A stretch of 64,000 nucleotides of DNA from Ferruginibacter sp. Its GTDB lineage: Bacteria; Bacteroidota; Bacteroidia; Chitinophagales; Chitinophagaceae. The notes under the pieces are model-generated. The model saw only the letters and a program-made list of their open reading frames with translations. It was not told the DNA's origin and did not search any database. The number at the start of each line of letters is the position of its first letter. The first letter of the stretch is position 1. Below are positions 27,262-62,839 of the stretch, in pieces. Location: NCBI GenBank assembly GCA_047601875.1, contig JASGIL010000001.1, positions 3,645,294 through 3,709,293 on the forward strand, in the 5' to 3' direction. Both the position numbers and the translations under genes were made by a program.

Positions 27262-28164
27262 ATGCCCCTAACTCCACAACAACATATACAAAGCTTTCTC
27301 GATTACCTGAAGTACCAGAAGCGATACTCCCGGCATACCATTATATCGTATGAAACCGACCTCGTTGCTTTTTTTGATTACCTGCAGTTGCAGTACCAGG
27401 AAAATTCGGTAGAAAATATAAAGCCTGCTTTCGTCAGGAGCTGGCTGGCAGAAGCAAAGGCAAATGGCATTAGTTCCAAAACCATCAACAGGAAGATATC
27501 GTCTTTAAGGTCCTTTTTTAAGCAGCAGCTAAAACAAGGAACGATAACTGTAAGTCCCATGGCGACCATCATTGCTCCAAAGATCAATAAAAGACTGCCG
27601 CAGTTTGTAGAAGAAAAGGATATAGACACTTTATTTGATCATGTTGAATTCCCGGATGACTGGAATGGCAATACCGAAAGAATGCTGATAAACCTGTTAT
27701 ATAATACGGGCATGCGAAAGGCTGAGCTTATCAGCTTAAAAGAAAACCAGGTGGATGTATCGAACAGTACCATAAAAGTATTGGGAAAGGGGAGTAAAGA
27801 ACGCATCATACCGGTTAGTAAAAAACTAATAGAGGTCCTTCAACAATACATGGTGCTAAAACATAATACACTCGTTGAGCCAGATAAAATACATTTATTG
27901 GTAAACGACCATGGGAAGAAACTGGATCCTAAATATGTATATAATGTAGTTAGAAAATACCTCAGCCTTGTAACTACTATTGATAAAAAGAGCCCACATA
28001 TATTAAGGCACACGTTCGCTACTCACTTAATGAATAATGGTGCTGATCTGAATGCAGTAAAGGAACTACTTGGTCACAGCAGCCTTGCTGCAACGCAGGT
28101 ATATACACACAATACGATCGAAAAATTAAAAGACGTATATAAAAAAGCTCATCCCAAAGCTTAG
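27262..28164 (+). CDS. tyrosine recombinase, XerC/XerD family
   Basis: N-terminal SAM-like domain. The catalytic region has GMRKAEL, HILRHTFATHL, LGHSSLAATQVYTH. Confidence 0.85.
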   Translation: MPLTPQQHIQSFLDYLKYQKRYSRHTIISYETDLVAFFDYLQLQYQENSVENIKPAFVRSWLAEAKANGISSKTINRKISSLRSFFKQQLKQGTITVSPMATIIAPKINKRLPQFVEEKDIDTLFDHVEFPDDWNGNTERMLINLLYNTGMRKAELISLKENQVDVSNSTIKVLGKGSKERIIPVSKKLIEVLQQYMVLKHNTLVEPDKIHLLVNDHGKKLDPKYVYNVVRKYLSLVTTIDKKSPHILRHTFATHLMNNGADLNAVKELLGHSSLAATQVYTHNTIEKLKDVYKKAHPKA

Positions 28165-29360: not shown

Positions 29361-29427
29361 GCCGTGGTAGCTCAGGGGTAGAGCATCCCGATGATATCGG
29401 GAGGGTCGTGAGTTCGATTCTCTGGCT
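29361..29427 (+). pseudogene. degenerate tRNA-Thr-like copy with a replaced anticodon arm (would read GAT) and a 5-nt deletion in the T-stem/acceptor
   Basis: The first 25 nt and the T-arm 5' half are identical to the downstream tRNA-Thr(GGT). The 3' end reads TTCGATTCTC-TGGCT instead of TTCGATTCTCACCTATGGCT, so the T-stem and acceptor stem cannot pair. Confidence 0.6.
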
Positions 29428-29438
29428 ACAACTAATAA

Positions 29439-29587: not shown

Positions 29588-30775
29588 ATGGCAAAAGAAT
29601 CATTCAAGAGGGATAAACCCCATCTTAACGTTGGTACTATCGGTCACGTGGATCATGGTAAAACGACACTTACAGCCGCTATAACCGATGTTTTGTCTAA
29701 AAAAGGTTTAGCGGAAAAGAAAAATTATGACGATATCGACGGTGCTCCTGAAGAAAAAGAAAGGGGTATTACGATCAATACAGCGCACGTAGAGTATGCT
29801 ACAGCTACTCGTCACTACGCACACGTTGACTGTCCAGGTCACGCTGACTATGTAAAGAACATGATCACTGGTGCTGCTCAGATGGACGGAGCGATCCTTG
29901 TAGTTGCTGCTACTGACGGACCAATGCCTCAGACAAAAGAACACATCCTTTTGGCTCGCCAGGTAGGTGTACCTCAGATCGTTGTTTTCATGAACAAAGT
30001 TGATCTTGTTGATGACGTAGAATTATTGGAACTGGTTGAAATGGAAATCCGTGAATTATTGACTTCATATGGTTTTGATGGCGATAAAACACCGATCATC
30101 CAGGGTTCTGCAACGGGCGCTCTGGCTGGTGAAGAAAAATGGGTTGCTAAGATCGATGAATTAATGGCTGCAGTTGATAGCTACATTCCATTACCTCCAC
30201 GCTTAGTTGATCAGCCGTTCCTGATGTCTGTGGAAGATGTATTCTCTATCACTGGTCGTGGTACCGTTGCTACTGGTCGTATCGAAAGAGGCCGTATCAA
30301 AGTTGGTGAAGCGATCGAGATCGTAGGTTTACAGGAAAAACCACTTGCTACTACATGTACAGGTGTTGAAATGTTCAAGAAATTGCTTGACGAAGGTGAA
30401 GCTGGTGATAACGCAGGTCTTCTGTTACGTGGTATTGAAAAGACCCAGATCCGTCGTGGAATGGTTCTTTGCAAACCAGGTTCTATCACTCCACACACTG
30501 AATTCAAAGGTGAAGTTTACGTATTGAGCAAAGAAGAAGGTGGACGTCACACTCCATTCTTCAACAAATATCGTCCTCAGTTCTACTTCCGTACTACGGA
30601 CGTAACTGGAGAAGTTACTTTGAATGCAGGTACTGAAATGGTTATGCCAGGCGATAACACAAGCTTATCAGTTACTTTGATCCAGCCAATTGCGATGGAA
30701 AAAGGTCTTAAGTTTGCGATTCGTGAAGGTGGCCGTACAGTAGGTGCTGGCCAGGTTACTGAGATCATTAAATAA
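29588..30775 (+). CDS. tuf: elongation factor Tu
   Basis: Contains [18 protein letters not shown] and NKVDLV. Length is 395 aa. Confidence 0.98.
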
Positions 30776-31061: not shown

Positions 31062-31256
31062 ATGAACAAATTCAGTGTTTTTGTAAAAGAGTCTTACAAA
31101 GAAATGATGGAGAAAGTGAGTTGGCCTAAATGGGAACAACTTCAACAATCTACCATGATCGTATTGGGTGCTACTTTATTCATCACGGCAATTGTGGCCC
31201 TGATGGACCTGATCGCTAATGGATCTATGAAATTTATTTACTCTTTATTTAAGTAA
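31062..31256 (+). CDS. secE: preprotein translocase subunit SecE
   Basis: 64 aa with a single C-terminal TM helix, sited between tRNA-Trp and nusG. Confidence 0.85.
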   Translation: MNKFSVFVKESYKEMMEKVSWPKWEQLQQSTMIVLGATLFITAIVALMDLIANGSMKFIYSLFK

Positions 31257-31258
31257 TT

Positions 31259-31879
31259 ATGGAAGCAACAACACCTCTGGATAACCTCACTGAGGGCAAA
31301 CCTGCAGATAAAGCGGAGAAGGAAAGCAAATGGTATGTGCTTAGGGTAGTAAGTGGTAAAGAGCGTAAAGTAAAAGAATACCTTGATAAGGATATTGTGC
31401 GTAATGGATGGGACAAGGTTATTAAGCAGATATTCCTGCCTGTAGAAAAAGTATACAAGGTTCTTAATGGAAAAAAAGTAATGCGTGAAAGGAACTTCTA
31501 TCCTGGTTATATCATGATCGAAGTTGCAGGTGATAAATTAAATGATGATATCATCCAGCACGTAAGCAATATCAGCAACGTTATGCACTTCTTAACGGAC
31601 GGTAAAGGTTCTAAAGGAAATATCATTTCTTTAAGAAAAGCTGAGGTTAATAAGATGCTTGGTAAGGTGGATGAGATGAGTGATATCGGCGGTGTAACGA
31701 TGAGTGAGCCATTTATTATTGGCGAAACGATCAAGATCATCGACGGACCATTCAATGATTTCAATGGTGTGATTGAAGAAGTGAGTGATGAAAAGAAAAA
31801 ATTAAAAGTCCAGGTAAAAATATTCGGAAGGGCTACCCCGGTAGAATTAAGTTATATGCAGGTGGAAAAACTTGCGTAA
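31259..31879 (+). CDS. nusG: transcription termination/antitermination factor NusG
   Basis: NGN domain has KWYVLRVVSGKERKV. KOW domain has GETIKIIDGPFNDFNGVIEEV. Confidence 0.95.
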   Translation: MEATTPLDNLTEGKPADKAEKESKWYVLRVVSGKERKVKEYLDKDIVRNGWDKVIKQIFLPVEKVYKVLNGKKVMRERNFYPGYIMIEVAGDKLNDDIIQHVSNISNVMHFLTDGKGSKGNIISLRKAEVNKMLGKVDEMSDIGGVTMSEPFIIGETIKIIDGPFNDFNGVIEEVSDEKKKLKVQVKIFGRATPVELSYMQVEKLA

Positions 31880-31975
31880 TCAATCAAAGTTATCAAACCA
31901 ACTGTTTCAAACCGCTCCATTTTTTAGGGCGGTTTTTTTTGTCTTTAACATCGGGAATGTTTAGCCTTAAATCTG
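31736..31975 (+). repeat. direct-repeat copy 1: intact nusG 3' end (KOW region) plus terminator
   Basis: Aligns by eye, at roughly 70-75% identity, with 36757-36985. That alignment covers atcatcga..ttcaatgatttcaatg..ttatatgcag and the terminator tttagggc(g/t)ggtttttt. Confidence 0.8.
31909..31940 (+). terminator. Rho-independent terminator after nusG
   Basis: aaaccgctcc-atttttta-gggcggtt followed by an 8-T run. Confidence 0.7.
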
Positions 31976-32279
31976 TAGTTGCCTGTTTTACCCATAAGTT
32001 TTGAGTAATTTTTTATATCAATTGATATAAAATTGGAGGTGGTAAAAGATAAAATGCTATTTTGATAAATTTTTGTAGTAACATATTGCCTGAAATTCGT
32101 TGATGAAAAAAGTCACCATAGATATAGAAGCATAAGCTAACTCACTATAGTCTCGTTTGAAAACTACAAAAAAAATAAATTTTTTCTTATGTCTCAAGTC
32201 GCGTTAAGTATCATAAGTGTAATTGGCTTGAAATGAAGTTTTATGATGAATAGTAGTATAAAATTTATCTTTTAAAAAA

Positions 32280-33044
32280 ATGAGTATGGAGTTTATAAAA
32301 GAGTGGGGAATGATAGCAGGTATCGCCGGGATGGCCATTGGTGTGTTCCTTATTTTGTTTCGGGAACTTATTGGTAAAATAATTTTTTCAACGCTAACTA
32401 AAAAACAGTCTTACGTAATTATCATACTCTTTATGGTATTAGTTTGGTCCTTTTCAATATTTTGTATAGTACAATATTATTATGGTAAGGATAAAGCTTC
32501 ACAGCAGGTAACAGTATTGGTTCATGGAGAAAATGGTAAAGATGATTTAATATTACCAACCCGGGGAAAAGTAAAATTAATTTATGGCGACGCTAATGTA
32601 TTGGAAACAATAAATGATAAAGGAGAAGCAACGTTCAAACAAATTCCCAGTCAATTCTTCAATTCAGATTTAACCGTTGAAATACTTTTTTTTGATCCAG
32701 GTGGCGAACCTTATCGTGCTGTAAAGCCAGATTCGCTTTATCATCTTAAAAAAGCCAGTTACATAGATTTAACTGTAAAACTTTACGGATTAGACATGTT
32801 AAAAGGAATTGTAACTGACTTTAAAACAGGCGACCCGATTCCGAACGTTCGTATTAGTATTCTTGGTATAGATACAATGTCCAATAATTATGGAGAATTT
32901 ACATTGTTGATCCCCCGTGAACATCAACGCAAATTCCAAACAGTTAGAGCTTTCAAAGAAGGATATGAACTATTTGAGCTTAACAATATTCCGGTACAAA
33001 CCCAAAGCGAATTCCCAATTGTAATGAAACCTAAACAGGATTAA
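32280..33044 (+). CDS. membrane-anchored protein: 2 N-terminal TM helices plus beta-sandwich (carboxypeptidase-regulatory-like) domain(s)
   Basis: TM segments are GMIAGIAGMAIGVFLILF and YVIIILFMVLVWSFSIFCIV. The C-terminal LKGIVTDFKTGDPIPNVRISILG...YGEFTLLIP is a CarboxypepD_reg-like signature. Confidence 0.5.
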   Translation: MSMEFIKEWGMIAGIAGMAIGVFLILFRELIGKIIFSTLTKKQSYVIIILFMVLVWSFSIFCIVQYYYGKDKASQQVTVLVHGENGKDDLILPTRGKVKLIYGDANVLETINDKGEATFKQIPSQFFNSDLTVEILFFDPGGEPYRAVKPDSLYHLKKASYIDLTVKLYGLDMLKGIVTDFKTGDPIPNVRISILGIDTMSNNYGEFTLLIPREHQRKFQTVRAFKEGYELFELNNIPVQTQSEFPIVMKPKQD

Positions 33045-33045
33045 A

Positions 33046-35112
33046 GTGAGGTATTATTTTGTAATATTAGGTTTAATCATTTTTAATTTTTATGCTCATT
33101 CTCAACAAGTGAAATTGTATGGGCAAATTTGTCTCCATAACAGTAAACTTAGTAAGGATAAACTTAAGTATGTAAATGGTTCATTTATTACTGCTCCTTA
33201 TTCGAAACCCTTTAAAGTTGTGGACAGTGGCAAATTTGAACTTGAGTTTGTAAACATTGCTTTGGGTACACCGATAAAAATTAACGTAGAGACCAATGGT
33301 TATGAAGTTGTGAATGATGATGATCTACGAAAAGTTATTATTGGAAGGAAGCTGCCATTGAATGTGTATTTGACTACCAAAGGGCAACTGGCATTTGCTC
33401 AAACCGAATTTTATAATATTAGTTTAAAAGCAATCTATGCAGAGAGAGACGCAAAAATCACAAAATTATCTGCAAGCGTGGCTGAAAGTAAAATTATTAT
33501 CGCTGAATTGGAGAAGAAGTTCGGACGAAAAATTGCAGATCGTTTTGAGGCTGAAAAATTATTAAATGCAAAAGTTGAAGAACTAAAAAAACGATTGCCG
33601 GAATTTGCACAGAGCATGGCTTATCAGAACCTGGACTTTGCTTCCGATATGTATGTAAAAGCGTATGAATATTTTGAAAAAGGAAACATTGAAAAAGCCA
33701 TTGAAGAATTAGATGAATCACAACTGGAAAAATCTTATCAAAATGCAAAGGAAAGTTTCATTGAAGGGGAGAGATTAGATAATTTAGGTAAAGATATAAA
33801 GGAGAAAAGCCTTTTGCAGATAGATCAGGTAATCAAAAGTCTAGAACTTAAGGCAGCATCATTTAGTTGGACTTTTAATTTTATCGGCTCAGCAACGATT
33901 TATGAAAAAATAATTGAAAAATACAGTTCTCATAATCCTGCCAGTGAAAAATTGGCTAATTATTATTTAAAAGCAGCTAAAGCCTTTTATGATGGTGGAC
34001 AGTTTGAAAAGGCTCTGAAACTTCTTCAAACAAATATTAAAATTCATGAAGAAATTCCTGAGATAGGCCACGCTGCCATAGCAAAATCCTATTCCCTGAT
34101 CGGCATTATTTATAGTATTTTAGGGCAATATGAAAAATCTTTAAAATACCAGGATACTGCGCTCAATAGTTTAAGAGAAATTTCCAATAGTAAGAGTTTG
34201 GATTTAGCACTTGTTTATTGCAATATTGGTGGTGCTTATTATTCTTTACATGAGTATGATAAAGCATTAAATTATCAAAAAAAAGATCTTAGTATACTGC
34301 AAGAACTTTTAGATAGTAATAATACAGATTTGGCTGGCTCTTATGGTAATATCGCAAACACTTACCTTGCTATGGGAAACTATGAACTGGCAATGAAATA
34401 TCAACAAAACTGTACTGAAATTTTTACCCAGGTTTTAGATTCCACACATCCTGATTTGCTTGGCTCTTACATAAATTTAGGTAATATATATAACGTTACT
34501 GGTGAGAAAGAAAAAGCACTCGCCATTTATCAGAAAGTCATCGAAAAAATAGAGCAAAGTTCAGGTCCTAAGAAACCGGACCTGGCCTTCGCTTATACAA
34601 ATGCAGGAGACATTTACTATTTATCTGGTCAATTTGAAAAGGCAATTGAGTGTTATAAACAAGGAATAAAATTTAAAGAGGTGCTTTTGCCTGGTCACTA
34701 TACTTTGGCCCATACGAATTATTCCCTGGGCCGGTGTTACTTATATTTAAAAGAGTACTCGCAGGCTATAGAGTACTTGCAGATATCAGTCAAAATTTCT
34801 CCCGTCCTAAAAGATTCTTTTTATTATAATGATATTGGTATTGCCTTTGCCAAAAGCGGGCAATTCGATAAAGCTAAATCAGCCTTTACTGAATTTGAGG
34901 ACCTTTCTAACGATAAAAGCAAGGTTTTTAAAGATTGGTGCATATACTATGCTTTGAGGGATGAGAAAAATAAAGCTCTTACAAATCTTAAAATGGCAAT
35001 AGATTTAGGATACGATGATTTAAATGTACCAACAGATGAAAGTATCGAAAATATTTTAGGAGATTCTTTGTACACCCAATTAATGAATGACTTTAAAAAT
35101 AGTACAAATTAA
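33046..35112 (+). CDS. secreted protein: signal peptide, beta-sandwich domain, long coiled coil, about 9 TPR (TPR_12-like) repeats
   Basis: GTG start lies 1 nt after the upstream stop. The signal is ILGLIIFNFYAHSQQ. Repeats follow an A..Y.N.G..Y...G.Y..A..Y pattern from about aa 300 to 680. No P-loop was seen. Confidence 0.55.
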   Translation: MRYYFVILGLIIFNFYAHSQQVKLYGQICLHNSKLSKDKLKYVNGSFITAPYSKPFKVVDSGKFELEFVNIALGTPIKINVETNGYEVVNDDDLRKVIIGRKLPLNVYLTTKGQLAFAQTEFYNISLKAIYAERDAKITKLSASVAESKIIIAELEKKFGRKIADRFEAEKLLNAKVEELKKRLPEFAQSMAYQNLDFASDMYVKAYEYFEKGNIEKAIEELDESQLEKSYQNAKESFIEGERLDNLGKDIKEKSLLQIDQVIKSLELKAASFSWTFNFIGSATIYEKIIEKYSSHNPASEKLANYYLKAAKAFYDGGQFEKALKLLQTNIKIHEEIPEIGHAAIAKSYSLIGIIYSILGQYEKSLKYQDTALNSLREISNSKSLDLALVYCNIGGAYYSLHEYDKALNYQKKDLSILQELLDSNNTDLAGSYGNIANTYLAMGNYELAMKYQQNCTEIFTQVLDSTHPDLLGSYINLGNIYNVTGEKEKALAIYQKVIEKIEQSSGPKKPDLAFAYTNAGDIYYLSGQFEKAIECYKQGIKFKEVLLPGHYTLAHTNYSLGRCYLYLKEYSQAIEYLQISVKISPVLKDSFYYNDIGIAFAKSGQFDKAKSAFTEFEDLSNDKSKVFKDWCIYYALRDEKNKALTNLKMAIDLGYDDLNVPTDESIENILGDSLYTQLMNDFKNSTN

Positions 35113-35376
35113 ATTCCTGCTAGCTTAATTGTAGGAACTCTCAAGCGGATAAATGCCCGGAACTATTATTGTAACTTTTTAAGTTTGCCAGTCTTGATGA
35201 TGTTAAGCTGTTTGGACCAATGTTAGTTTTGTTATCTAAATGTACCGGGTACGCTTACCTGTATAAGTCTATAATTATTTTTCAAACCATATCCGCCACC
35301 TGCCAATCGTTCCTTATATGCCGACCTTTATTTATATTTAGATATGCATTCATTTTTCCAAAGCTAAAACTGTAAT

Positions 35377-36732
35377 ATGAACCGCCGAAGTTTTATCAAG
35401 CATTCAACAATACTTACCGGTGGACTTGTGCTTTCAAACAGCCTTGCTGCATCCTTTCATATTTCTAAAAAGACAAGTGTAATTATTATCGGTGCCGGGT
35501 TTGCAGGTTTGGCGGCTGCCTATGCATTGAGTAAAAAGAAAATTCCTTTTGTCATCCTGGAAGCCCGGAACCGAATTGGCGGCAGGGTATTTTCATTTGA
35601 AGCGGACCCGGCAGAAAAATTAGTGATTGAACTGGGGGCCGAATGGGTGGGCAAATCGCATGAAAGGCTGATGGACCTTTGTAAGGAATTCAACCTTGAA
35701 TTACAGAACAATCAATTCGATACGCATCTTTTGTACAAGGGAAAATACAGCCCGCAAGGGCAATGGGATTATTCCGAACCCTGGAAAAAGAAATGGGATA
35801 GCATGCTAAAAACCTATAGACATTTGACCGAAGTTGATAAGAGAAAACTGGATAAATACGATTGGTGGCGATACCTTGTAAATAATGGTTGTGAAGCTTC
35901 AGATCTCGAAATAAAGGAGCTACTCGACAGCACCGATTTTGGTGAGAGTATTCGCCATGTTTCTGCCTTTGCAGCTTTGGCCGAATACGCCGAGAGCAGC
36001 AAAAAGAACGAAATGGATTATAAGATAAAGGGAGGCAATGGTAAACTTGCGGAAGCATTGGCAGATAAAGTTGGAAGGGAATTTATCAAAACCGGTTATA
36101 AAGTAGTTACGATCAATCAAACCGATAAAGTAAAAGTTGTTTGCGCCAATGGCGAAACATTTACTGCGGATAAACTGATTTGCACAGCCCCCACTTTTGC
36201 TGCGAAGAAAATAAACTGGCAGCCTGCTTTACCTGCAAATGTGATGCAGGCAATGAATGAATTGCAATATGCCCGGATCAACAAGCACCCTGTATTGTTC
36301 AATCAACGTTTTTGGAAAGATGAGTCTTTTGACATGATCACTGATACCCCGGCGCATTATATTTATCATGCTACCAAAAACCAACCCTCACAAAAAGGAG
36401 TGTTGATCTCTTATACAATTGGTGATAAAGCGGCAATGATCAGTAATCAATCGGAGGAATGGAATGGCCGTAATGTACTGGAAGCATTATCGCCGGGCTT
36501 CGGGGACGTAAAATCGTTGGTGGAAAAACAATTCAATTACTATTGGGGGCAAGATGAATTTTCAATGGGGGCATATGCTTTATATGGTGTCGGGCAATGG
36601 TTTGATGTAAGACCCATTTTACGTAAATCATTTTTACATACCCATTTTGCCGGTGAACATTTGGCCGATTGGCAGGGCTTTATGCAAGGGGCGATTGATA
36701 CCGGGGAAGAGGCGGCGGGTAAAATAAGTTAA
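35377..36732 (+). CDS. Tat-exported flavin-containing amine oxidase family protein
   Basis: Twin-arginine signal MNRRSFIKHSTILTGG...LAAS. FAD fingerprint IIIGAGFAGLAAAYAL...ILEARNRIGGRV. C-terminal FAGEH motif. Confidence 0.75.
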   Translation: MNRRSFIKHSTILTGGLVLSNSLAASFHISKKTSVIIIGAGFAGLAAAYALSKKKIPFVILEARNRIGGRVFSFEADPAEKLVIELGAEWVGKSHERLMDLCKEFNLELQNNQFDTHLLYKGKYSPQGQWDYSEPWKKKWDSMLKTYRHLTEVDKRKLDKYDWWRYLVNNGCEASDLEIKELLDSTDFGESIRHVSAFAALAEYAESSKKNEMDYKIKGGNGKLAEALADKVGREFIKTGYKVVTINQTDKVKVVCANGETFTADKLICTAPTFAAKKINWQPALPANVMQAMNELQYARINKHPVLFNQRFWKDESFDMITDTPAHYIYHATKNQPSQKGVLISYTIGDKAAMISNQSEEWNGRNVLEALSPGFGDVKSLVEKQFNYYWGQDEFSMGAYALYGVGQWFDVRPILRKSFLHTHFAGEHLADWQGFMQGAIDTGEEAAGKIS

Positions 36733-36756
36733 TGGAGCATTTGTAATAACATTAGA

Positions 36757-36985
36757 ATCATCGATAAATCGTTCAATGATTTCAATGCTGTAATCCATGT
36801 AAGAGAAAAAAAGAAAATTAAAGGTAAAGGTATCTGGCAGGGCTAATTCGGAAGAATTAATTATATGCAGCTGAAAGCTTAGTAATGTATAAATTAACTG
36901 TTAGGAGGGTGTCTCATGTTTAGGGCTGGTTTTTTGTGCTTTAATATTTCGGATTTGTATATGTTACCTTAATACCATATAAAAA
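36757..36985 (+). pseudogene. direct-repeat copy 2: decayed fragment of the nusG KOW-domain coding region plus a decayed terminator
   Basis: Translates as IIDKSFNDFNAVIHVREKKKIKGKG... versus NusG IIDGPFNDFNGVIEEVSDEKKKLKVQVK. It is followed by tttagggctggttttttgtgc, which matches the nusG terminator. Confidence 0.75.
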
Positions 36986-37027
36986 GGGAAATTATCTCAC
37001 TTGGATTGCCACCACGATACTCATATT

Positions 37028-38041
37028 TTAAGACCCGTATTTTTCATAATCTGTTAATGTGTTAGGAGGCAAAAATAGCGGCCCTTTAAAATAACAATTT
37101 CCGCCTTTTTTCTTTGCTCGAAAACATCCATGTATAGCTCTTACGATCCATTGATTCATTTGTTCGATCTGTGATTTACCATAAGAATCAAATAGAAGCT
37201 CTGCATATCCAAAACTAGCTGTTACATACAATTTTGGTGATATTATTTCCCAGTCAAATCTCATTATGCTCTCTCGAATATGTTCTATTAATCTAACAGT
37301 CATATCCTCACCGTAAAATGTTGGGCAAATTATAAATTCGTCACTATTAATATTTTTTCGCAAAGAGTCTGGAGCAGCGCTTGCGACAATCTTATTTATT
37401 TCTAACAAAATTTTATTGCCAATTTCTTTACTATATATTCGATTAATAGCGTTAAAATTATCAATATCAAAGTAAATTAAAAAAGTAATTCGTTTTTCAG
37501 AGAAATGCCTAAACATCAATTTTAATATAGTATTTGTAAAAGCTGACTTATCTACTGTTTTTACTAATTTTTTTTCAACGCCTTCCGGATCATCTAAATA
37601 ATCAAATGGTTTAAATTTTACTGATAAAGCTCCAAATTGCGATAAGCTTTTATGTAATCTTTGGACTAATGTGGAATCTAATTCATTTTTAACGTGAATT
37701 CCAAATATCCTTCGAAGACCATAAGGCACATCTTTTTGGTTTAAAGTATCTCCAACAAATAATGGAATAACTTTATGTTTAGTAGGGTTCTGCCTGTTTA
37801 ATGCAATCGCAGTACTTATTTCCTCCTTTTCGTAAAAAGAAGTTTCTGTATTTTCAGTGCTAAGAATAATTGAAATATATGATTGAGCTTGTGCTTCTGG
37901 TATTTTTACATCCCATAAATCCCCCGGCAGTAGCGATTCTGAATCTAAAAAAACCTCAAACTGTAAGTCCAAAAGATTAAACAATTGTTTGGCTAAAAGA
38001 GTATCTATTGCGGAATGTGCGATAAAAAAATGATATTTCAT
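37028..38041 (-). CDS. TIR domain fused to a divergent GGDEF-type (palm) nucleotide-cyclase-like domain (signature NSDEF)
   Basis: N-terminal HFFIAHSAIDTLLAKQL...VFLDSESLLPGDLWDVKIPEAQAQSYISIILS...SFYEKEEIS fits the TIR pattern. C-terminal FLIYFDIDNFNAINRIYSKEIGN..., NINSDEFIICP, TASFGYAE and RAKKKGGNCY align by eye to the GGDEF motifs of PleD-type cyclases. Start placed at the ATG at 38041 (MKYHFF); the ORF-track start is 38101. Confidence 0.65.
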   Translation of the reverse strand: MKYHFFIAHSAIDTLLAKQLFNLLDLQFEVFLDSESLLPGDLWDVKIPEAQAQSYISIILSTENTETSFYEKEEISTAIALNRQNPTKHKVIPLFVGDTLNQKDVPYGLRRIFGIHVKNELDSTLVQRLHKSLSQFGALSVKFKPFDYLDDPEGVEKKLVKTVDKSAFTNTILKLMFRHFSEKRITFLIYFDIDNFNAINRIYSKEIGNKILLEINKIVASAAPDSLRKNINSDEFIICPTFYGEDMTVRLIEHIRESIMRFDWEIISPKLYVTASFGYAELLFDSYGKSQIEQMNQWIVRAIHGCFRAKKKGGNCYFKGPLFLPPNTLTDYEKYGS

Positions 38042-38569
38042 ACAAAATGCGATTTTGTAATTATGTCTTTTACAAAGATTTGCGAAATCCCTAAAATACA
38101 ATTTAAATTTCTGTAATGTTCAAAAATTAAATGATTAGGGGGATATCTTAACTAAGATGCAAACTTTTCCAAATCGAGGAAAATGTGACTACCTTAACTA
38201 GAGCCAGTGTTCAGGAGTATCGCAGGTGTCATTTAAATCTGATAGTCTGCAACTGGTTTAAGATATAATATTTCTCCTACCAAACTAAATTTTCATTAGT
38301 TGTAATATATTTTCAAAGAAGTTTCAATAGATATCTTAGTATTAAAATGTACGCTAAATCAAATTGAATCATTATGCCAAATAAAGAATTGCAGATATTG
38401 GTAGTTGAACAAAAATACTGGTTGCACATTTTTTCAAAAATGTTTTTTATGCAATAACGAGGCTTGATAACCAACAAACTGCGTTTTTCAAAAGTCTTTC
38501 GTGCAGATTTGTAGTCGACACACAAACTTAGGAATGAAAAAAATCCCCCATTTCCTCTCTCCATTCCAA

Positions 38570-38577
38570 CAAATTCC
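38570..38577 (+). promoter_or_regulatory. candidate -7 box (TActTTTG) for the rplKAJL operon
   Basis: TAnnTTTG match about 115 nt upstream of rplK. Confidence 0.3.
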
Positions 38578-38691
38578 CTTACTTTTGCCGCCCCAATTAG
38601 TTCTTTATTGAATTTGTCCCACTAAAACGGACAGGTTTGGGAGTCAGACCGTAAGATGCGGAAAGACGTTAACACCAAAAACATTTTATAA

Positions 38692-39135
38692 ATGGCAAAA
38701 GAAGTAACCGGCTTTGTCAAGCTCCAGTGTAAAGGAGGACAAGCCAACCCGGCGCCGCCAATCGGACCAGCCCTTGGTTCCAAAGGCGTGAACATCATGG
38801 AGTTCTGCAAACAATTCAATGCAAGAACACAGGATAAACCCGGAAAAGTATTACCAGTGTTGATCACTGTGTATGCAGACAAGTCTTTCGACTTCATTAT
38901 CAAAACCCCTCCAGCTGCAGTTCAGTTAATGGACGCTGCCAAGATCCAGAGCGGTAGTAAAGAACCCAATCGTGTAAAAGTTGGTAAAGTTACCTGGGCG
39001 CAGGTTGAAGAGATCGCCAAGGATAAAATGTCTGACTTAAATGCTTTCACGATGAAAAGTGCAATGAGCATGGTTGCCGGTACAGCCCGCAGCATGGGTT
39101 TAACTGTTGAAGGAAAAGCCCCATGGGATAATTAA
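38692..39135 (+). CDS. rplK: 50S ribosomal protein L11
   Basis: [35 protein letters not shown]. Confidence 0.97.
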
Positions 39136-39162
39136 TTGTCAACCTAAAAATTTCTAAAAAAA

Positions 39163-39852
39163 ATGATTACTAAAAAAAGAAAAATAGCAAACGCTAAGGT
39201 TGACGTTAACAAAGCTTATACGCTTAAAGAAGCATCATCCCTGGTTAAAGAAGTTAATACAACAAAATTTGATAGTTCAGTTGACCTGCATGTGAAATTA
39301 GGAGTTGATCCTAAGAAAGCAGACCAGGCGATCCGTGGTACTGTATCACTTCCTCACGGTACAGGTAAAACGAAAAAAGTGCTGGTACTTTGTACTCCTG
39401 ATAAAGTAGCAGAAGCTACTGCTGCAGGTGCTGACTTCGTTGGACTGGACGAATACATCACAAAAATTGAAGGTGGCTGGACAGATATTGATGTTATCGT
39501 GGCTACACCATCGGTGATGCCTAAGATCGGTAAGTTGGGTAAAGTGTTAGGTCCACGTAACCTGATGCCGAATCCAAAAACAGGAACTGTTACCAATGAT
39601 ATCACTGGTGCAGTGAATGATCTTAAAGGTGGTAAAATTGCTTTTAAAGTTGATAAAGTTGGTATCATTCACGCATCTATTGGCCGTGTAAGTTTTGCAC
39701 CTGAAAAGATCGCTGAAAACTGCCAGGAATTTTTAAACGCAATCATCAAATTAAAACCAGCATCATCTAAAGGTACTTACCTGAAAGGTGTTAGCATGGC
39801 AAGCTCAATGAGCCCCGGCATCCTGGTTGACACAAAATCTGTTCAAAACTAA
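39163..39852 (+). CDS. rplA: 50S ribosomal protein L1
   Basis: [34 protein letters not shown]; 229 aa. Confidence 0.97.
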
Positions 39853-39885
39853 TCCGGTCATTATCGGGTTTACAAAATATTTGTT

Positions 39886-40521
39886 ATGACAAAACAAGAG
39901 AAAAATGAAGTGATAGATTTGCTGAAAGGCAAATTCTCTCAATACAATAATTTCTACATTACCGATACAGAAAGCCTTACAGTTGACCAGGTTGGTAAAT
40001 TGCGCAGGGTTTGTTTCGATAAACAGGTAGAAATGAAAGTGGCTAAGAACACTTTGATCAAAAAAGCACTGGAAGGAATAGACGCAGAAAAATATGCAGG
40101 TGTTTATGATTCTTTACATAAAGTAACTGCTTTGCTTTTCAGCGAAAATCCTAAAGAACCAGCAATGATCATCAGCAGTTTCCGTAAGGATAACAATAAT
40201 GAAAAGCCTGTTTTGAAAGCAGCTTTCATTAATGGTGATGTATTCGTTGGCGACAACCAATTGAAAGCACTTACGCAGATCAAGACGAAGAACGAATTGA
40301 TCGGCGAGATCATCGGTTTGTTACAATCACCTATTCAACGTGTATTAGGTGCTTTGCAAAACAAGGACAATGCTAAAGGTAAAGTTGAAGAAGCACCTGT
40401 TGCAGCAGCGCCGGTAGCAGAAGCAGCCCCAGCAGCAGCTCCTGAAGCACCTGTTGCAGAAACACCTGCAGCTGATGCAGCACCAGAAGCAACAACTGAC
40501 GAAGCTCCAAAAGCTGAGTAA
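39886..40521 (+). CDS. rplJ: 50S ribosomal protein L10 with an Ala/Pro/Glu-rich C-terminal extension
   Basis: Position in the operon, an L10-like body, and an approximately 45-aa tail EEAPVAAAPVAEAAPAAAPEAPVAETPAADAAPEATTDEAPKAE. Confidence 0.9.
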   Translation: MTKQEKNEVIDLLKGKFSQYNNFYITDTESLTVDQVGKLRRVCFDKQVEMKVAKNTLIKKALEGIDAEKYAGVYDSLHKVTALLFSENPKEPAMIISSFRKDNNNEKPVLKAAFINGDVFVGDNQLKALTQIKTKNELIGEIIGLLQSPIQRVLGALQNKDNAKGKVEEAPVAAAPVAEAAPAAAPEAPVAETPAADAAPEATTDEAPKAE

Positions 40522-40633
40522 GTTTAAATAATTAACTGGCCGGATGTTACAATAAAGGCATAAACATATTTTTTTAAACTCTCCGACGGATCCCGGAAAA
40601 TCGGGATATGAAGTCGGAAAAAATCAAATCAAA

Positions 40634-41005
40634 ATGGCAGACGTAAAAGCATTAGCAGAAAGCTTAGTAAGCTTAACAGTAAAAGATGTTCAGGAATTAG
40701 CTGAATTCTTAAAATCAGAATACGGTATCGAACCAGCTGCAGCTGCAGTAGTAGTAAGCGGCGATGGTGGTGGTGCTGCAAAAGTTGAAGAAAAAACTTC
40801 TTTCAACGTTATTCTTAAGAGCGGTGGCGCTAACAAATTAGCGGTTGTAAAAATCGTTAAAGAATTAACCGGATTGGGACTTAAAGAAGCTAAGGATTTA
40901 GTTGATACAGCTCCAAAACCAGTTAAAGAAGGTGTTGATAAAGCAGCAGCTGACGAATTAAAAGCTAAATTAACTGAAGCAGGTGCTGAAGTTGAAATCG
41001 CTTAA
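40634..41005 (+). CDS. rplL: 50S ribosomal protein L7/L12
   Basis: Has an AAAAVVV hinge and C-terminal [21 protein letters not shown]. Confidence 0.97.
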
Positions 41006-41024
41006 TTCAATTGAAATAAATTCC

Positions 41025-41053
41025 AAAAGCCTCCGGTTTATCGGGGGCTTTTG
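41025..41053 (+). terminator. Rho-independent terminator after rplL
   Basis: aaaagcctccg-gtttat-cgggggcttttgcttt. Confidence 0.6.
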
Positions 41054-41057
41054 CTTT

Positions 41058-41105
41058 CATTGAATATTGAATATTCAATACTTAATATTCAATACTCATC
41101 GGAAA
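41058..41105. repeat. word-hairpin family 1, partial or rearranged copy
   Basis: cattgaatattgaatattcaatacttaatattcaatactcatcgga. It shares the ...ttcaatactcatcgga end with the copy at 51866. Confidence 0.55.
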
Positions 41106-41239
41106 ATACCACAATTAAGCATTTCCCATAAATACGAGGTGCAGCTTCCCCATAATAGTGCTTTTGTTGGCTTTTTATTGTGGTATTCTCTCCTTTGGCA
41201 CAACGGTACAACCTTTGTTTTCTCATAGAAAAAAGATCT

Positions 41240-42121
41240 ATGAGAAAGGCTTTAATATTTGGAACAGCATTGATAATATTTTCATCAATTCGTTCAACAG
41301 CACAAGAGGTACCCGTTATTGATAGTGTCACTACAGTTAAACAAGCTGCCAATCAACCCGTATATAAAATAAAAAAGGGAATAGATTATCCCTTAACCAT
41401 TGCAACAGCTGCGTGGGGAATATTGGGTTCACAAAAGATATATGGTCGCGATACCATTCCATCTTCAGAAATCATGGGACTTGATAGAAAGACAATTAAT
41501 AATGTAGACAGGTGGGTGAGTTACAATTATTCAAAAGCTGCGGCGAAGGTCAGCGATTATTTCTTTGTTGGAAGCATGCCTTTTCCACTGATCTTGCTTT
41601 TTGATAAAAAAATACGAAAAGATGGGCCTAAAGTAGGCGTTTTATACCTGGAAGCGATTGGGATCACAAGCGCAGTATATGTCACATCGGCCATGCTTGC
41701 TGATCGCCATCGTCCTTATTCCTACAATCCCGATGTTGATATGGGTAAACGTACCAGGGGGGGAGCAAGAAATTCTTTTTTTGCCGGTCACGTGGCGATT
41801 GTAGCAACATCCATGTTTTTTACCGCCCAGACATATATCAATTATCACCCTGAAATGAAAAATAAATGGATACTTTATACGGGTGCCGGATTAATAACTT
41901 CTACAACAGGATATCTAAGGCTTAAAGCAGGTCAACACTTTTTAACTGATGTTTTGACCGGGGCTGCAATAGGTACCCTCTCTGGTTTATTGACCCCTTA
42001 TTTCCATAAAATACGGCACTTTGAAAACGCCAGGCTAACCATATTGCCAAATTTTCAGCAGTCTTCCTCAGGAGGGTTCACTTTACTCTATAACCTGGAC
42101 AAGCATCGTAATAGCAAATAA
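41240..42121 (+). CDS. PAP2-family membrane phosphatase
   Basis: Signal MRKALIFGTALIIFSS. PAP2 motifs are ADRHRP, SFFAGH and RLKAGQHFLTD. Start set at the ATG at 41240. Confidence 0.75.
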   Translation: MRKALIFGTALIIFSSIRSTAQEVPVIDSVTTVKQAANQPVYKIKKGIDYPLTIATAAWGILGSQKIYGRDTIPSSEIMGLDRKTINNVDRWVSYNYSKAAAKVSDYFFVGSMPFPLILLFDKKIRKDGPKVGVLYLEAIGITSAVYVTSAMLADRHRPYSYNPDVDMGKRTRGGARNSFFAGHVAIVATSMFFTAQTYINYHPEMKNKWILYTGAGLITSTTGYLRLKAGQHFLTDVLTGAAIGTLSGLLTPYFHKIRHFENARLTILPNFQQSSSGGFTLLYNLDKHRNSK

Positions 42122-42226
42122 CCTTAGTTTATTAAAAATTTTAATGTAAAATTTGTCATTTTATCAAAAATCTTACCAATCACATAATTTTCATATTTCG
42201 GAATAGATTTGTACTGAATTATTCCG

Positions 42227-42234
42227 TAACTTTG
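42227..42234 (+). promoter_or_regulatory. candidate -7 box (TAacTTTG) upstream of rpoB
   Basis: TAnnTTTG match about 80 nt upstream of the rpoB ATG. Confidence 0.3.
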
Positions 42235-42313
42235 CCCTCCTTTAATTTAGGATCAGTGGCGCAAGCTGTGATCTCTTCAGAAAAAGGCCTTCACTAAAAG
42301 TTTTAATTAATAT

Positions 42314-45300
42314 ATGTCTGCAACAAAATCACCCGCTGCTAAACGTATCAATTTCGGAAAAGTTGAACTTTTGGCAGAACAACCAGATTTGCTCGGAATT
42401 CAGATCCAATCGTTCAAAGATTTTTTTCAGTTAGAAACCACTCCCGATAAACGTAACGTTGAGGGATTGTTTCGTGTGTTCAAGGAAAACTTTCCTATTA
42501 CTGACACACGTAACATTTTCGTACTGGAATTTCTTGACTACTTCGTGGATCCTCCGCGTTACACCATTGAAGAGTGTATTGAAAGAGGTCTCACTTATGC
42601 GGTACCGTTAAAAGCAAAACTTCGCCTTAGTTGTAATGATGAAGAGCATGTGGATTTCCAAACAATTGTACAGGATGTATTCTTAGGAAATATCCCTTAC
42701 ATGACGCCACGTGGTACTTTTGTTATCAATGGTGCTGAAAGGGTTGTTGTTAGCCAGCTTCACCGTTCACCTGGTGTATTCTTCGGTCAGTCGATGCACC
42801 CGAACGGAACCAAGATCTACTCTGCAAGGGTTATTCCTTTCAAAGGAGCTTGGATGGAGTTCGCAACTGATATCAATAACGTAATGTTTGCTTACATCGA
42901 TCGTAAGAAAAAATTCCCGGTAACTACTTTGTTACGTTCAATCGGTTTTGAAACGGATAAAGATATCCTGGAACTTTTCGGCATGGCTGATGAAGTAAAA
43001 GCTGATAAGAAGACTTTAGAGAAACATGTTGGCAAACGTCTTGCTGCACGTGTATTACGTACATGGGTAGAAGATTTTGTGGATGAAGATACCGGTGAAG
43101 TTGTTTCTATCGAAAGAAATGAGATCGTTCTTGAAAGAGATACTATTCTTGATGAATCAAACATTGCAATGATCCTGGAAATGGATGTAAAGAGCGTGTT
43201 TATCCAGAAAGAAGAAGTAAGTGGTGATTATGCGATCATTTATAACACATTGAATAAAGATACTTCCAACAGTGAACTGGAAGCGGTTCAGCATATCTAC
43301 AAGCAATTGCGTGGTGCTGATGCTCCGGATGATGAAACTGCACGTGGTATCATTGATAAATTATTCTTCAGCGATAAACGTTATGACCTTGGAGAAGTTG
43401 GTCGTTATAAGATCAACCGTCGTCTTGGTTTGAATTATCCATTAGAGAAAAAAGTATTAACAAAAGAAGATATCATCTCTATCATTAAATACCTGGTGTT
43501 ATTAACCAATGGTAAGAGTGAGGTGGATGATATCGATCACTTAAGCAACCGTCGCGTTCGTACCGTTGGTGAACAATTGTATGCACAGTTCGGAGTTGGT
43601 CTTGCACGTATGGCACGTACCATCCGTGAAAGGATGAACGTAAGGGATAACGAGGTATTTACGCCAGTTGATCTGATCAATGCAAGAACGCTTTCTTCTG
43701 TTATCAATTCATTCTTTGGTACTTCACAGTTGTCGCAGTTCCTTGATCAGACAAATCCTTTGAGTGAGATCACGCACAAGCGTCGTATCTCCGCACTCGG
43801 ACCCGGCGGTTTGAGCAGGGAAAGAGCTGGTTTCGAGGTTCGTGACGTACACTATTCTCACTACGGCCGTCTTTGTACCATCGAAACACCGGAAGGACCA
43901 AACATTGGTTTGATCTCAACGTTATGCGTACACGCTAAAATAAACGATATGGGCTTTATCGAAACGCCTTATCGTAAAGTAGAACAGGGTAAAGTGGATA
44001 TGAAGAAGATCACTTTCCTGAGTGCAGAAGAAGAAGATACAGCAAAGATCGCACAGGCTAATATTGATCTTGATGATAAAGGAAACTTTGTTGAAGATAT
44101 GATCAAGTCACGTCAAACCGGTGACTTCCCGATCCTTCCAAAAAATGAAGTGGAATATATGGACGTTGCTCCGAACCAGATCGTTGGTTTGAGTGCTTCT
44201 TTGATCCCGTTCCTTGAACATGATGATGCTAACCGTGCCTTGATGGGATCGAACATGCAACGCCAGGCAGTTCCATTGTTGCGTCCTGAAGTTCCGATCG
44301 TAGGAACTGGTTTGGAAGCAAAAGCTGCACGTGATGCACGTATCCAGATCCATGCAGATGGTGAAGGTGTGGTAGAGTATGTTGATTCAATTGAAATACA
44401 TGTTCGTTATAAGAGAAACGAAACTCAACAATTAGTAAGCTTCGAAGACGATCTTAAAGTATATAAATTAACCAAGTTTGTTCGTACCAACCAGGAAACA
44501 ACGATCAATCTCCGCCCTGCGGTTGTAAAAGGCCAGAAGGTTTCTGAAGGTGATTTCTTAACCGAAGGTTATGCAACAAAAGGTGGTGAGATCGCTCTTG
44601 GACGTAACCTGAAAGTGGCATTTATGCCATGGAAAGGATACAACTTCGAGGATGCGATCGTTATCTCTGAAAAAGTTGTAAAAGACGACTGGTTTACATC
44701 TATCCATATCAGTGAGTTTGAAACAGAAGTGCGTGATACCAAATTGGGAGAAGAAGAACTTACGCCGGATATTCCAAACGTAAGTGAAGAAGCTACCAAA
44801 GACCTTGATCAGAATGGTATTATCCGTATCGGTGCAAATATTAAGGAAGGAGATATCATTATCGGAAAGATAACTCCAAAAGGAGAAAGCGATCCTACAC
44901 CGGAAGAAAAACTATTGCGTGCCATCTTTGGTGACAAAGCGGGTGATGCAAAAGATGCTTCATTGAAAGCACCAAGTGGAACTGAAGGTGTTGTTATCAA
45001 TAAGAAATTATTCCAGCGTGCAAAGAAAGATAAGAATGCAAAGGTTCGTGAAAAAGCACAATTGGATAAGATTGAAAAGACACACGAGAAGAACGAACAG
45101 GACCTGATGGAACTGTTGCAAAACAAACTACAAACTTTGTTGAAAGACAAAACGAGCCAGGGTGTTAGCAACAACTTCGGTGAAGTGTTGATTGGTAAAG
45201 GAGCTAAGTTCAATCCAAAGAACCTTTCGAACATCGACTATCAAAACGTAAATCCATTAGGATGGAGTGGTGATGCAAAAACAGATAACCTGATCAACGT

Positions 45301-46123
45301 ATTGCTTCATAATTATAACATCAAATTCAACGAAGAATTGGGTCGTTATAAGAGAGAGAAATTCAATATCTCTATTGGGGATGAATTACCAGCTGGTGTA
45401 TTGAAACTTGCAAAAGTATACATGGCGGTTAAACGCAAATTGAAAGTGGGAGATAAGATGGCGGGTCGTCACGGTAACAAAGGTATTGTTGCCAAGATCG
45501 TTCGCCAGGAAGATATGCCATTCCTTGAAGATGGAACTCCTGTTGATATCGTATTGAATCCATTGGGCGTACCAAGTCGTATGAACCTTGGACAGATCTA
45601 CGAGACAGCGCTTGGATGGGCCGGAGAAAAATTAGGTGTTCGTTTCGCAACGCCAATCTTCGACGGAGCTTCTGTAGATGAGATCGCTGAGAATATTGAA
45701 AAAGCAGGTTTACCTAAATTCGGGCATACATATTTATATGATGGAGAAACAGGTGACCGCTTCGATCAGAAAGCAACAGTAGGTATCATCTATATCATCA
45801 AGCTTCACCACATGGTGGATGATAAAATGCACGCACGTTCAATCGGGCCATACAGTCTCATTACGCAACAACCTTTGGGTGGTAAAGCCCAGTTTGGTGG
45901 TCAGCGTTTTGGTGAGATGGAGGTTTGGGCACTTGAAGCTTATGGTGCGTCAAACATCCTGCAGGAATTACTTACACTTAAATCGGATGATATCATCGGA
46001 AGGGCGAAAACTTATGAAGCCATCGTAAAAGGTGATAACATTCCAAGAGCAGGTATTCCGGAGTCGTTCAATGTATTGGTACATGAATTACGTGGGTTGG
46101 GATTGGATCTGAAGTTTGAGTAA
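42314..46123 (+). CDS. rpoB: DNA-directed RNA polymerase subunit beta
   Basis: 1269 aa, with [12 protein letters not shown] and [18 protein letters not shown]. Confidence 0.99.
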
Positions 46124-57779: not shown

Positions 57780-58391
57780 ATGAAGCATTTATCCTTAGTA
57801 TTGAATTTTGTGTTGATCATCGCGGTAGGCATCTTATTTTTCCTCCATTTTTCCAATAAAAAACCAGTTGATAAAAAAGCTCCGGCATTTGTGCCAACAG
57901 CCGGCGGAACGAATATGACCCGTCCAGCCATCGCTTATGTTGAACTTGATTCATTGAATGAAAAAATAAGCTATATAAAGAACAGGAGAAAGGAATTGGA
58001 AAAAGAACAAAATGCGATCGAATCCGAATGGGAAACCGGTTACAGGGGACTGGAAGAACAAAAGAATAATTTTTTAAAGAAGGGTAATGCCATTACACAG
58101 GAAGAAGCCCAGCAGTTTCAAAATCATTTATTGGGGCAACAGCAGCAAATAGACGAGAAGAAGCAGGCGCTTAATCAAAAGCTGAATGAAAAAAGTTACA
58201 AGTTTATGGATGACATTCAAACGAAATTGAAAGACTTTTTGGCTGAATACAACAAAGAAAAAAATTACATGTACATTTTTACTACAGGCACCGGGCTTGA
58301 TTATATGGTGTATAAAGACTCGTCTATGAATATCACTGATGATGTGATAGAGGGTATGAATAAAAAAATGAAGGCGTTGGGCGAACAATAA
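57780..58391 (+). CDS. OmpH/Skp-family periplasmic chaperone
   Basis: N-terminal TM/signal, a Gln/Lys/Glu-rich coiled coil, and a family-typical size of 203 aa. Confidence 0.7.
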   Translation: MKHLSLVLNFVLIIAVGILFFLHFSNKKPVDKKAPAFVPTAGGTNMTRPAIAYVELDSLNEKISYIKNRRKELEKEQNAIESEWETGYRGLEEQKNNFLKKGNAITQEEAQQFQNHLLGQQQQIDEKKQALNQKLNEKSYKFMDDIQTKLKDFLAEYNKEKNYMYIFTTGTGLDYMVYKDSSMNITDDVIEGMNKKMKALGEQ

Positions 58392-58414
58392 TGTAGATAG
58401 ATTTATTTAACTTG

Positions 58415-58445
58415 AATCCCGTTACCAAACGGGATTTTTTATTTT
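58415..58445 (+). terminator. Rho-independent terminator
   Basis: aatcccgtt-accaa-acgggatt followed by a T-run. Confidence 0.7.
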
Positions 58446-58480
58446 TACATTTACACATCCAATAAATTTAAAACTGCAGC

Positions 58481-59899: not shown

Positions 59900-59904
59900 T
59901 CAAT

Positions 59905-60900: not shown

Positions 60901-60905
60901 AAAGT

Positions 60906-61640: not shown

Positions 61641-61779
61641 TAAATAGCCTTTCTTATCCCATTAGCAAATATTAAACAAACCACATTGTTCTTTAATGAC
61701 CATTTAAGCTTTCTTCTAAAAGATTCGATGGTATTTGGGCATTAATTAAATATTTTTGTGCCATAAACCAACAAGGAAT

Positions 61780-62730: not shown

Positions 62731-62771
62731 ATAAGTATTCAACGTACAATATCTATTTTTTAAGCATAGTA

Positions 62772-62824
62772 GTTTGGTGTTTGTAGTTTGGTGTTAATAG
62801 AACACCAAACTACAAACACCAAAC
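62772..62824. repeat. perfect 24-bp-stem hairpin (GTTTGGTGTTTGTAG words), 5-nt loop
   Basis: gtttggtgtttgtagtttggtgtt-aatag-aacaccaaactacaaacaccaaac. Confidence 0.85.
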
Positions 62825-62839
62825 GTTTTATTTGAGCAC

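Follow-up and report, generated by a model that had tools for sequence, protein, structure and literature searches.

What lies between nusG and rplK in a genome of Ferruginibacter sp., and how did it come to lie there? The question is raised by a 64,000-nucleotide stretch of DNA (contig JASGIL010000001.1, positions 3,645,294 to 3,709,293; hereafter "the window"), in which the secE-nusG-rplKAJL-rpoBC cluster is split by accessory genes. In E. coli, nusG ends one transcription unit and rplK starts another, which has its own promoter and an L1-regulated leader, and the spacer between the two genes measures ∼150-200 bp there and in most bacteria. In contrast, the spacer of the window measures 6.8 kb, and in the Chitinophagaceae it ranges from 0.15 to >10 kb. 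An initial annotation of the window had placed the end of nusG at 31879, with a terminator of its own, and the start of rplK at 38692, and had proposed that the four non-housekeeping genes in between mark a local insertion hotspot. The open reading frame (ORF) listing confirms both coordinates and gives a gap of 6,812 bp (31880-38691). The four genes, likewise confirmed by the ORF listing and Pfam, encode a membrane protein (gene 1), a TPR protein (gene 2), a flavin amine oxidase (gene 3), and a TIR + GGDEF-like protein (gene 4).

We read the gap as a variable slot at an operon boundary that was filled by flank-anchored recombination, and the second, decayed nusG 3′ end inside it as the footprint of a 3′-end displacement; we put the probability of this reading at about 0.7. 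It draws on the anatomy of the gap, the nusG relic, the variability of the interval across the family, and the differing origins of the inserted modules. From these we infer how recombination took place, in which order the events occurred, and a defence or conflict role of genes 1 and 2 and of the TIR gene.

For the comparison with relatives, one genome per species was scanned with NusG, which gave 80 Chitinophagaceae loci (NusG identity 73-95%) with up to 10 kb on each side; they come from Ferruginibacter, Ginsengibacter, Hanamia, Sediminibacterium, Lacibacter, and other genera. Both nusG and rplK are present in 57 of these loci, which we call closed, and a further 12 loci extend 10 kb past nusG without rplK. 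A site was regarded as empty if its spacer measured ∼150-390 bp and held no ORF of at least 100 amino acids.

In the closed loci, the nusG-rplK spacer varies from 148 to 8,882 bp (median 890 bp) and exceeds 500 bp in 43 cases. Fourteen sites are empty, including those of the close relatives L003 and L009, whereas the gaps of L001, L004, L005, L006, and L018, likewise among the nearest relatives, contain 4.5-8.9 kb of genes that differ from gap to gap. Clustering of 240 gap ORFs left 138 singletons; the 57 closed loci show 30 architectures, or ∼22 if low-complexity histone-like genes, which BLAST had left apart, are merged. None of the 80 species carries any of the four window genes within 10 kb downstream of nusG. 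An ancient, fixed arrangement, in which the same four genes would occupy this position throughout the family, is rejected on this count, and the interval in relatives is indeed either empty or filled with different cargo.

The variability is confined to few junctions. In the same loci, the spacers secE-nusG, rplK-rplA, rplA-rplJ, and rplJ-rplL never exceed 356 bp, the tuf-secE spacer never exceeds 683 bp, and the xer-hpf spacer never exceeds ∼700 bp. Within the tuf-to-rpoB cluster, only nusG/rplK and rplL/rpoB (230-4,697 bp in relatives) vary, and nusG/rplK is more variable than the seven neighbouring junctions, with rplL/rpoB alone comparable (a ranking within the cluster, based on the 20-kb loci). 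Both flanks of the gap are persistent genes whose synteny is kept in relatives. The hotspot proposed in the initial annotation thus stands, as a hypervariable interval next to invariant neighbours in the same cluster.

The occupants found in relatives are mostly ordinary genes, such as thrABC, two-component regulators, SusC/SusD, a beta-lactamase-family hydrolase, sugar-modifying enzymes in Sediminibacterium, and a single-stranded DNA-binding protein (SSB) with a PIF1-type helicase. Across the gaps of all relatives we found one transposase fragment and zero integrases, and the few matches to defence models are of a generic kind. The site behaves as a permissive inter-operon gap or synteny breakpoint, not as an attachment site of mobile elements or a dedicated defence island.

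Some occupants recur within clades. A DUF4920 gene directly follows nusG in ∼20 loci of the Ferruginibacter group, and the gaps of the Lacibacter group (L066-L080) hold a single lysine/alanine-rich histone H1-like (HC2-type) gene of ∼150 amino acids on the opposite strand (e.g. L076, 10612-11100, minus strand). Both look like clade-level resident occupants of the slot. Remnants of the gap genes of relatives, e.g. of DUF4920, were sought in the window, and none were found. In a Hanamia metagenome-assembled genome (MAG; L040, 2658-8762), rpoB follows ∼2.3 kb after nusG with no rplKAJL in between, and the ribosomal operon has been moved or lost there.

The gap of the window and its two ends comprise the following features.

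31259-31879, plus strand: nusG, intact, 206 amino acids (Pfam NusG and KOW; 73-95% identity to the 80 Chitinophagaceae NusG)
31909-31940, plus strand: intrinsic terminator of nusG, a bulged GC hairpin with U-run (RNA folding)
31956-32279, strand not applicable: AT-rich orphan spacer upstream of gene 1 (GC ∼28-31%)
32280-33044, plus strand: gene 1, membrane protein with a CarboxypepD_reg-like C-terminal domain
33046-35112, plus strand: gene 2, signal peptide, coiled coil, and TPR
35377-36732, plus strand: gene 3, flavin amine oxidase
36757-36955, plus strand: relic of the nusG 3′ end (KOW) with a dead terminator
37028-38041, minus strand: gene 4, TIR and degenerate GGDEF
38042-38562, strand not applicable: orphan non-coding DNA, in which the gene 4 promoter must lie
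38563-38691, plus strand: native rplK promoter and leader, conserved in L001, L003, L004, L005, L009, and others

At the left end, the terminator claimed for nusG is present. Its hairpin (31909-31935), followed by a U-run, folds with -12.6 kcal/mol (z = -2.9 against shuffled sequences); a simple terminator scan missed it because the stem is bulged. At the right end, the final ∼130 bp before rplK (38563-38691) are the conserved rplK promoter and leader. They contain a promoter-like pair, TTTG (38584-38587) and, after a 21-nt spacer, TGAATTTG (38609-38616), as well as a leader hairpin (38639-38669) flanked by GGGAGUC and GACG. All three elements are invariant in an alignment with four relatives that have empty spacers (L003, L009, L022, and L039), in which the flanks of the hairpin read GGGAGU and ACGUUA. 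By eye and from general knowledge, we take the promoter pair to follow the Bacteroidota-type pattern and the leader to resemble an L1 autoregulatory site. Rfam, searched for non-coding RNA at a permissive threshold, returned no family for the leader or the non-coding stretches and matched only tRNAs.

Relatives with empty sites have a terminator hairpin and T-run at a distance of 20-60 bp ahead of the rplK promoter, so that the native spacer of ∼180-200 bp consists of a terminator half and a promoter/leader half. All extra DNA of the window sits between these two halves. Because nusG has its terminator and rplK a separate promoter, insertions at this point would leave both essential operons untouched. 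The flanks tuf-secE-nusG and rplKAJL-rpoBC are among the most conserved DNA of the family, and a neutral junction between conserved flanks that may serve as recombination anchors would account for a slot that varies family-wide.

The placement of the native halves exactly at the two ends of the insert also bears on whether the gap might be an artefact of assembly or binning, a suspicion that arises since the source is a MAG. Such an artefact is very improbable in view of the ends, of proteins identical to those of two gap genes, which derive from one 5.97-Mb contig, and of a repeat within the gap that has diverged to ∼77% identity with indels and hence is not a collapsed or mis-joined one.

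The duplication of the nusG 3′ end that the initial annotation had noted is real: positions 31736-31955 recur at 36757-36955 with ∼77% identity and indels, and the repeated segment spans the entire terminator and ∼145 bp of coding sequence. The downstream copy is a pseudogene: its translation is a NusG KOW fragment broken by an internal stop, and its terminator hairpin has been lost, folding no better than shuffled sequences. The relic begins within ∼25 nt of the oxidase stop codon, exactly where the homology to the oxidase orthologue of L085 ends. Its best matches are nusG genes of the window's own lineage. A search for a nusG 3′ duplication in the 80 relatives found none, so that the copy in the window is unique, and homologues of the gene 1-gene 2 cassette at other loci are without nusG-like DNA. 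The functional nusG 3′ end is 93% identical to that of L001, which agrees with the values along the remaining cluster.

A relic of this kind might have arisen locally, by tandem duplication of nusG, loss of most of the second copy, and independent insertions between the two, with no foreign nusG DNA involved. The closeness of the relic to nusG of its own lineage fits this scenario, and the same cluster shows a tandem, tRNA-Thr-derived pseudo-tRNA at 29361-29433. It nevertheless requires more steps (a duplication, a large deletion that ends precisely at the oxidase stop, and two to three insertions), and no trace of a duplicated secE or nusG 5′ part is found. We consider it distinctly unlikely.

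The arrangement also recalls a site-specific integrative element that inserted at the nusG 3′ end, brought an attP copy of it, and later lost its integrase, the two copies being attL and attR. Direct repeats (∼200 bp) of the target-gene 3′ end do flank the segment of cassette and oxidase (∼5 kb), and a homologue of the cassette in Puia lies beside ParB/PrimPol-type mobile-element genes. However, the ORF listing and Pfam reveal no integrase, excisionase, or transposase in the gap (31880-38691), and the 80 relatives show neither another nusG 3′ duplication nor a recurrence of the cargo. The absence of nusG-like sequence from cassette homologues elsewhere speaks against such an element as well, as does the inclusion of a family-native gene in the bracketed segment. 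A repeat of a terminator plus ∼145 bp of coding sequence is moreover long for an attachment site, and the plasmid database held no match for gene 1 and no full-length homologue of gene 4. An integrative element is therefore improbable.

Displacement of the nusG 3′ end within a variable slot, the reading we prefer, would have proceeded in at least three steps. A rare TIR + GGDEF-like gene would first have been placed directly behind the nusG terminator. Later, a segment from a related bacterium, made up of a nusG 3′ end, its terminator, and cargo, would have recombined homologously inside or upstream of nusG, whereas its right end would have been joined non-homologously. Homology-facilitated illegitimate recombination, or a circle that entered via a single crossover, may have been the route. 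The cargo would have comprised the two-gene effector + TPR cassette and the family-native oxidase. The resident nusG 3′ end and terminator would thereby have been shifted downstream, along with the TIR gene, and would have decayed there to the relic at 36757-36955. A further step would be the assembly of this cargo from two sources, as its oxidase (GC 43%) differs in history from its cassette (GC 33%). The earlier claim of at least two independent acquisitions is reasonable on this account, and at least three modules (cassette, oxidase, and TIR-GGDEF gene) can be counted.

Several points weigh against this reconstruction. No donor genome with the order nusG-cassette-oxidase was found, and the displacement is reconstructed from a single footprint. 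Because the relic is unique to the genome of the window, the mechanism is not generalisable to the other 60-odd occupied sites, and because the nearest relative available has only ∼87-90% DNA identity, the events are not datable. The matches to defence models are at the level of domains only, and base composition gives weak support to a foreign cassette (z = -1.3 and -1.7 for its two genes). Nothing in the identity profiles along the cluster points to a foreign source of the functional nusG 3′ end; this counts as neutral, as it neither supports nor excludes a closely related donor.

Base composition was judged against the 39 window genes outside the gap (38.5 ± 3.3% GC; window as a whole, 38.0%). 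The initial annotation had called three of the gap genes clearly AT-rich. Genes 1 (34.1%), 2 (32.9%), and 4 (30.9%) are indeed lower in GC, but only gene 4 is a clear outlier (z = -2.3), and the evidence is modest. The contrast had been inflated because the ribosomal and RNA polymerase genes used for comparison are themselves high-GC outliers. The oxidase, at 42.6% GC (z = +1.2), is host-like.

What, then, are the modules that fill the slot? Domains of the window genes were assigned with Pfam, and defence models were searched with PADLOC. Gene 1 combines a transmembrane N terminus with a CarboxypepD_reg-like C-terminal domain (a weak Pfam match). Gene 2 starts 1 nt past the gene 1 stop codon and encodes a protein with a signal peptide, a coiled coil, and TPR repeats (TPR_12, E = 3e-47). 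Homologues of gene 1, 50-72% identical, are scattered across Bacteroidota, and in many of them the shared C-terminal domain is joined to a TIR, CHAT, or PF19964 N terminus that replaces the membrane segment. In Puia and Aequorivita (L084 and L087), as in the window, the gene directly behind the gene 1 homologue encodes a TPR protein, and the two genes abut or overlap. A large partner gene also stands behind the TIR-bearing variant; the Puia homologue adjoins ParB, PrimPol, and AAA-type mobile-element genes. DNA similarity to the loci of cassette homologues begins at the gene 1 start codon. These comparisons mark genes 1 and 2 as a cassette of two genes that is portable and whose effector end can be swapped, as is typical of conflict systems. 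The cassette resembles an uncharacterised conflict or defence system, a role suggested by the swapping of effector domains and by the context of its homologues.

The cassette loci that we compared are 32280-35112 of the window, L084 8001-12346, L087 8001-10895, and L088 2678-6356; a large partner always follows, and it is often a TPR protein. BLASTP between genes 1 and 2 detected no significant shared domain, and motifs recognised by eye (VKLYG and GYE) hint that the N terminus of gene 2 is also a beta-sandwich. A metagenome scan with gene 2 retrieved only generic TPR proteins (22-29% identity) and neither a donor nor a sister genome. In a Chryseobacterium paper, the cassette is listed as a predicted island solely owing to an IS110 insertion.

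Gene 3 encodes an amine oxidase (Pfam Amino_oxidase, E = 3e-59) with the twin-arginine motif RRSFIK and has 3,457 homologues. Its orthologues are 65-88% identical throughout Chitinophagaceae and lie at other loci in relatives, which differ between L085 and L086; the homology to L085 is limited to 35326-36727. The family-wide orthologues, the host-like GC content, and the other loci in relatives show that the oxidase is a native gene of the family that was relocated, and not a foreign one. In L086 (1-11362), it adjoins a block of OmpH, an amino-acid permease, PfkB, asparaginase, and IspD that lies a few kb beyond rpoC. The same OmpH-to-IspD block is found in the window at 57780-63514, downstream of rpoC and 21 kb from the oxidase, an arrangement that suggests local relocation.

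Gene 4 combines a TIR domain (TIR_2, E = 3e-10) with a GGDEF domain (E = 4e-9; 36.9 bits against a cut-off of 23.8). Its likely start is ATG 38041, since the 100%-identical NCBI protein P0001 has 337 amino acids and homologues align from that methionine. Full-length homologues are rare, with only seven among 5.8 billion clusters. At the GG[DE]EF active-site motif, the window protein reads NSDEF, and the seven homologues carry NSDEF, SGDQF, GEDEF, GKDEF, or GSDEF; the acidic positions DxD and D[EQ]F are invariant in the family, and the TIR glutamate is also conserved. Two homologues lie on long contigs, one beside Rep3/ParA and the other in an AbiGi/TIR/PLD/IS110 island (L081 10001-11026 and L083 10001-11107), and these homologues, like gene 4, are stand-alone genes. 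Such plasmid-like or defence-island contexts suggest a role in defence or conflict. PADLOC returned only domain-level matches for the gap genes, a ThsB-like TIR (E = 6e-5) and generic TPR.

Gene 4 shares the TIR domain with Thoeris ThsB and its relatives; in contrast to these, no ThsA-type partner is found beside it, its neighbours being the nusG relic and non-coding DNA. With GGDEF or minimal CRISPR polymerase-type nucleotide cyclases (Panoptes, PMC12657218) it shares a palm-domain cyclase fold with acidic metal-binding residues. It differs from both systems in that TIR and cyclase are fused in one protein, in its motif (NSDEF, or [GNS]xD[EQ]F in general), and in being known from sequence alone.

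With the start of gene 4 at ATG 38041 and not at TTG 38101, the non-coding stretch upstream of rplK, for which ∼590 bp (38102-38691) had been reported, is real but measures 650 bp. Its orphan part (38042-38562) has no Rfam match and resembles nothing in relatives or elsewhere in the window, and an 83-amino acid ORF within the stretch (38313-38564, minus strand) is without support. The spacer at 31956-32279, which presumably holds the cassette promoter, likewise matches neither relatives nor the loci of cassette homologues. A sensitive BLAST search with four non-coding stretches gave no match in the window or in any locus.

The slot can be compared with insertion hotspots that have been described between core genes. 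These show rapid turnover, hold many occupants without mobile-element genes, and are proposed to be driven by recombination of the flanks (PMC5635113). As in the hotspots of Oliveira et al. 2017 (PMC5635113), persistent, syntenic core genes enclose an interval with differing accessory genes. The defence-island hotspots of E. coli (Hochhauser et al. 2023, PMC10121019) are likewise flanked by core genes, whereas the occupants in Chitinophagaceae are mostly ordinary chromosomal genes. The present case differs from both studies in its flanks, secE-nusG and rplKAJL-rpoBC, and in that the comparison spans species and genera of a family instead of one species. We found no report of a nusG-rplK hotspot in the literature. 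The slot is thus a further example of core-flanked hotspots already described, real but fairly ordinary; what is distinctive is its location in a supposedly frozen cluster, the confinement of variability to two operon boundaries, and the visible nusG relic.

For the displacement itself, the closest parallel is provided by Rhs and type VI secretion system (T6SS) effector loci, in which C termini are displaced by homology-facilitated illegitimate recombination (Kirchberger et al. 2017, PMC5361080; mechanism, PMC3240628). There, a new 3′ end with its cargo pushes the old 3′ end and the downstream gene away as orphans, which matches the order nusG, cargo, relic, and TIR gene in the window. In contrast to Rhs/T6SS loci, the anchor in the window is an essential housekeeping gene whose 3′ end would have been restored unchanged, only one layer of displacement is seen, and the mechanism is deduced from the arrangement.

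The surroundings of the gap consist of the following genes.

27262-28164: xerC-like gene, upstream of hpf and the tRNA array, then tuf (ORF listing)
29588-30775: tuf, with tRNA-Trp next (ORF listing, tRNA calls)
31062-31256, plus strand: secE (ORF listing), directly upstream of nusG in 79 of the 80 relatives
38692-41005, plus strand: rplK-rplA-rplJ-rplL (rplK 38692-39135, rplL 40634-41005), with internal spacers invariant in relatives
41180-42121, plus strand: PAP2-family gene between rplL and rpoB (Pfam PAP2, E = 1e-12)
42314-46123: rpoB, with rpoC next (ORF listing)

The xerC-like gene was considered as a possible island integrase and rejected, as it is kept in place in most relatives. The second split of the cluster in the window (41006-42313) contains a strong rplL terminator (41024-41053) ahead of the PAP2 membrane phosphatase gene; among relatives, a PAP2 homologue at rplL-rpoB is found only in L003 (51% identity). 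Upstream, ARAGORN called a tRNA-Ile(GAT) at 29361-29433, 5 nt upstream of a tRNA-Thr(GGT), which reaches only 30.7 bits with Rfam. It is a tandem copy of the tRNA-Thr(GGT) in which the anticodon arm differs but is perfectly paired and 5 nt are missing from the T-stem/acceptor strand. This pseudo-tRNA is absent in seven relatives, all of which have only Thr-Tyr-Gly-Thr before tuf.

A more far-reaching reading would take the nusG/rplK gap of the Chitinophagaceae, together with rplL/rpoB, as a place where new defence cassettes are captured, with no mobile element involved, through displacement anchored in an essential gene. The relic could then represent the first trace of C-terminal displacement in an essential housekeeping gene, and genes 1 and 2 (interchangeable N-terminal effectors, namely membrane, TIR, CHAT, or PF19964, on a shared beta-sandwich adaptor, and a TPR partner) and the fusion of TIR with a palm cyclase could be undescribed defence systems. 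Taken together, we regard this combination as rather unlikely.

For the family, the finding means that the secE-nusG-rplKAJL-rpoBC block, often taken as a frozen marker of gene order, breaks at exactly two operon boundaries, whereas all junctions within operons are fixed. It illustrates cleanly, in a natural setting, that the places at which a core cluster accepts insertions are set by transcription-unit structure and not by gene function. In the nusG relic, slot filling without mobile-element machinery has left a visible footprint, which is rare. The anchors make the slot easy to locate, and it could serve as a source of accessory and candidate defence genes from Chitinophagaceae.

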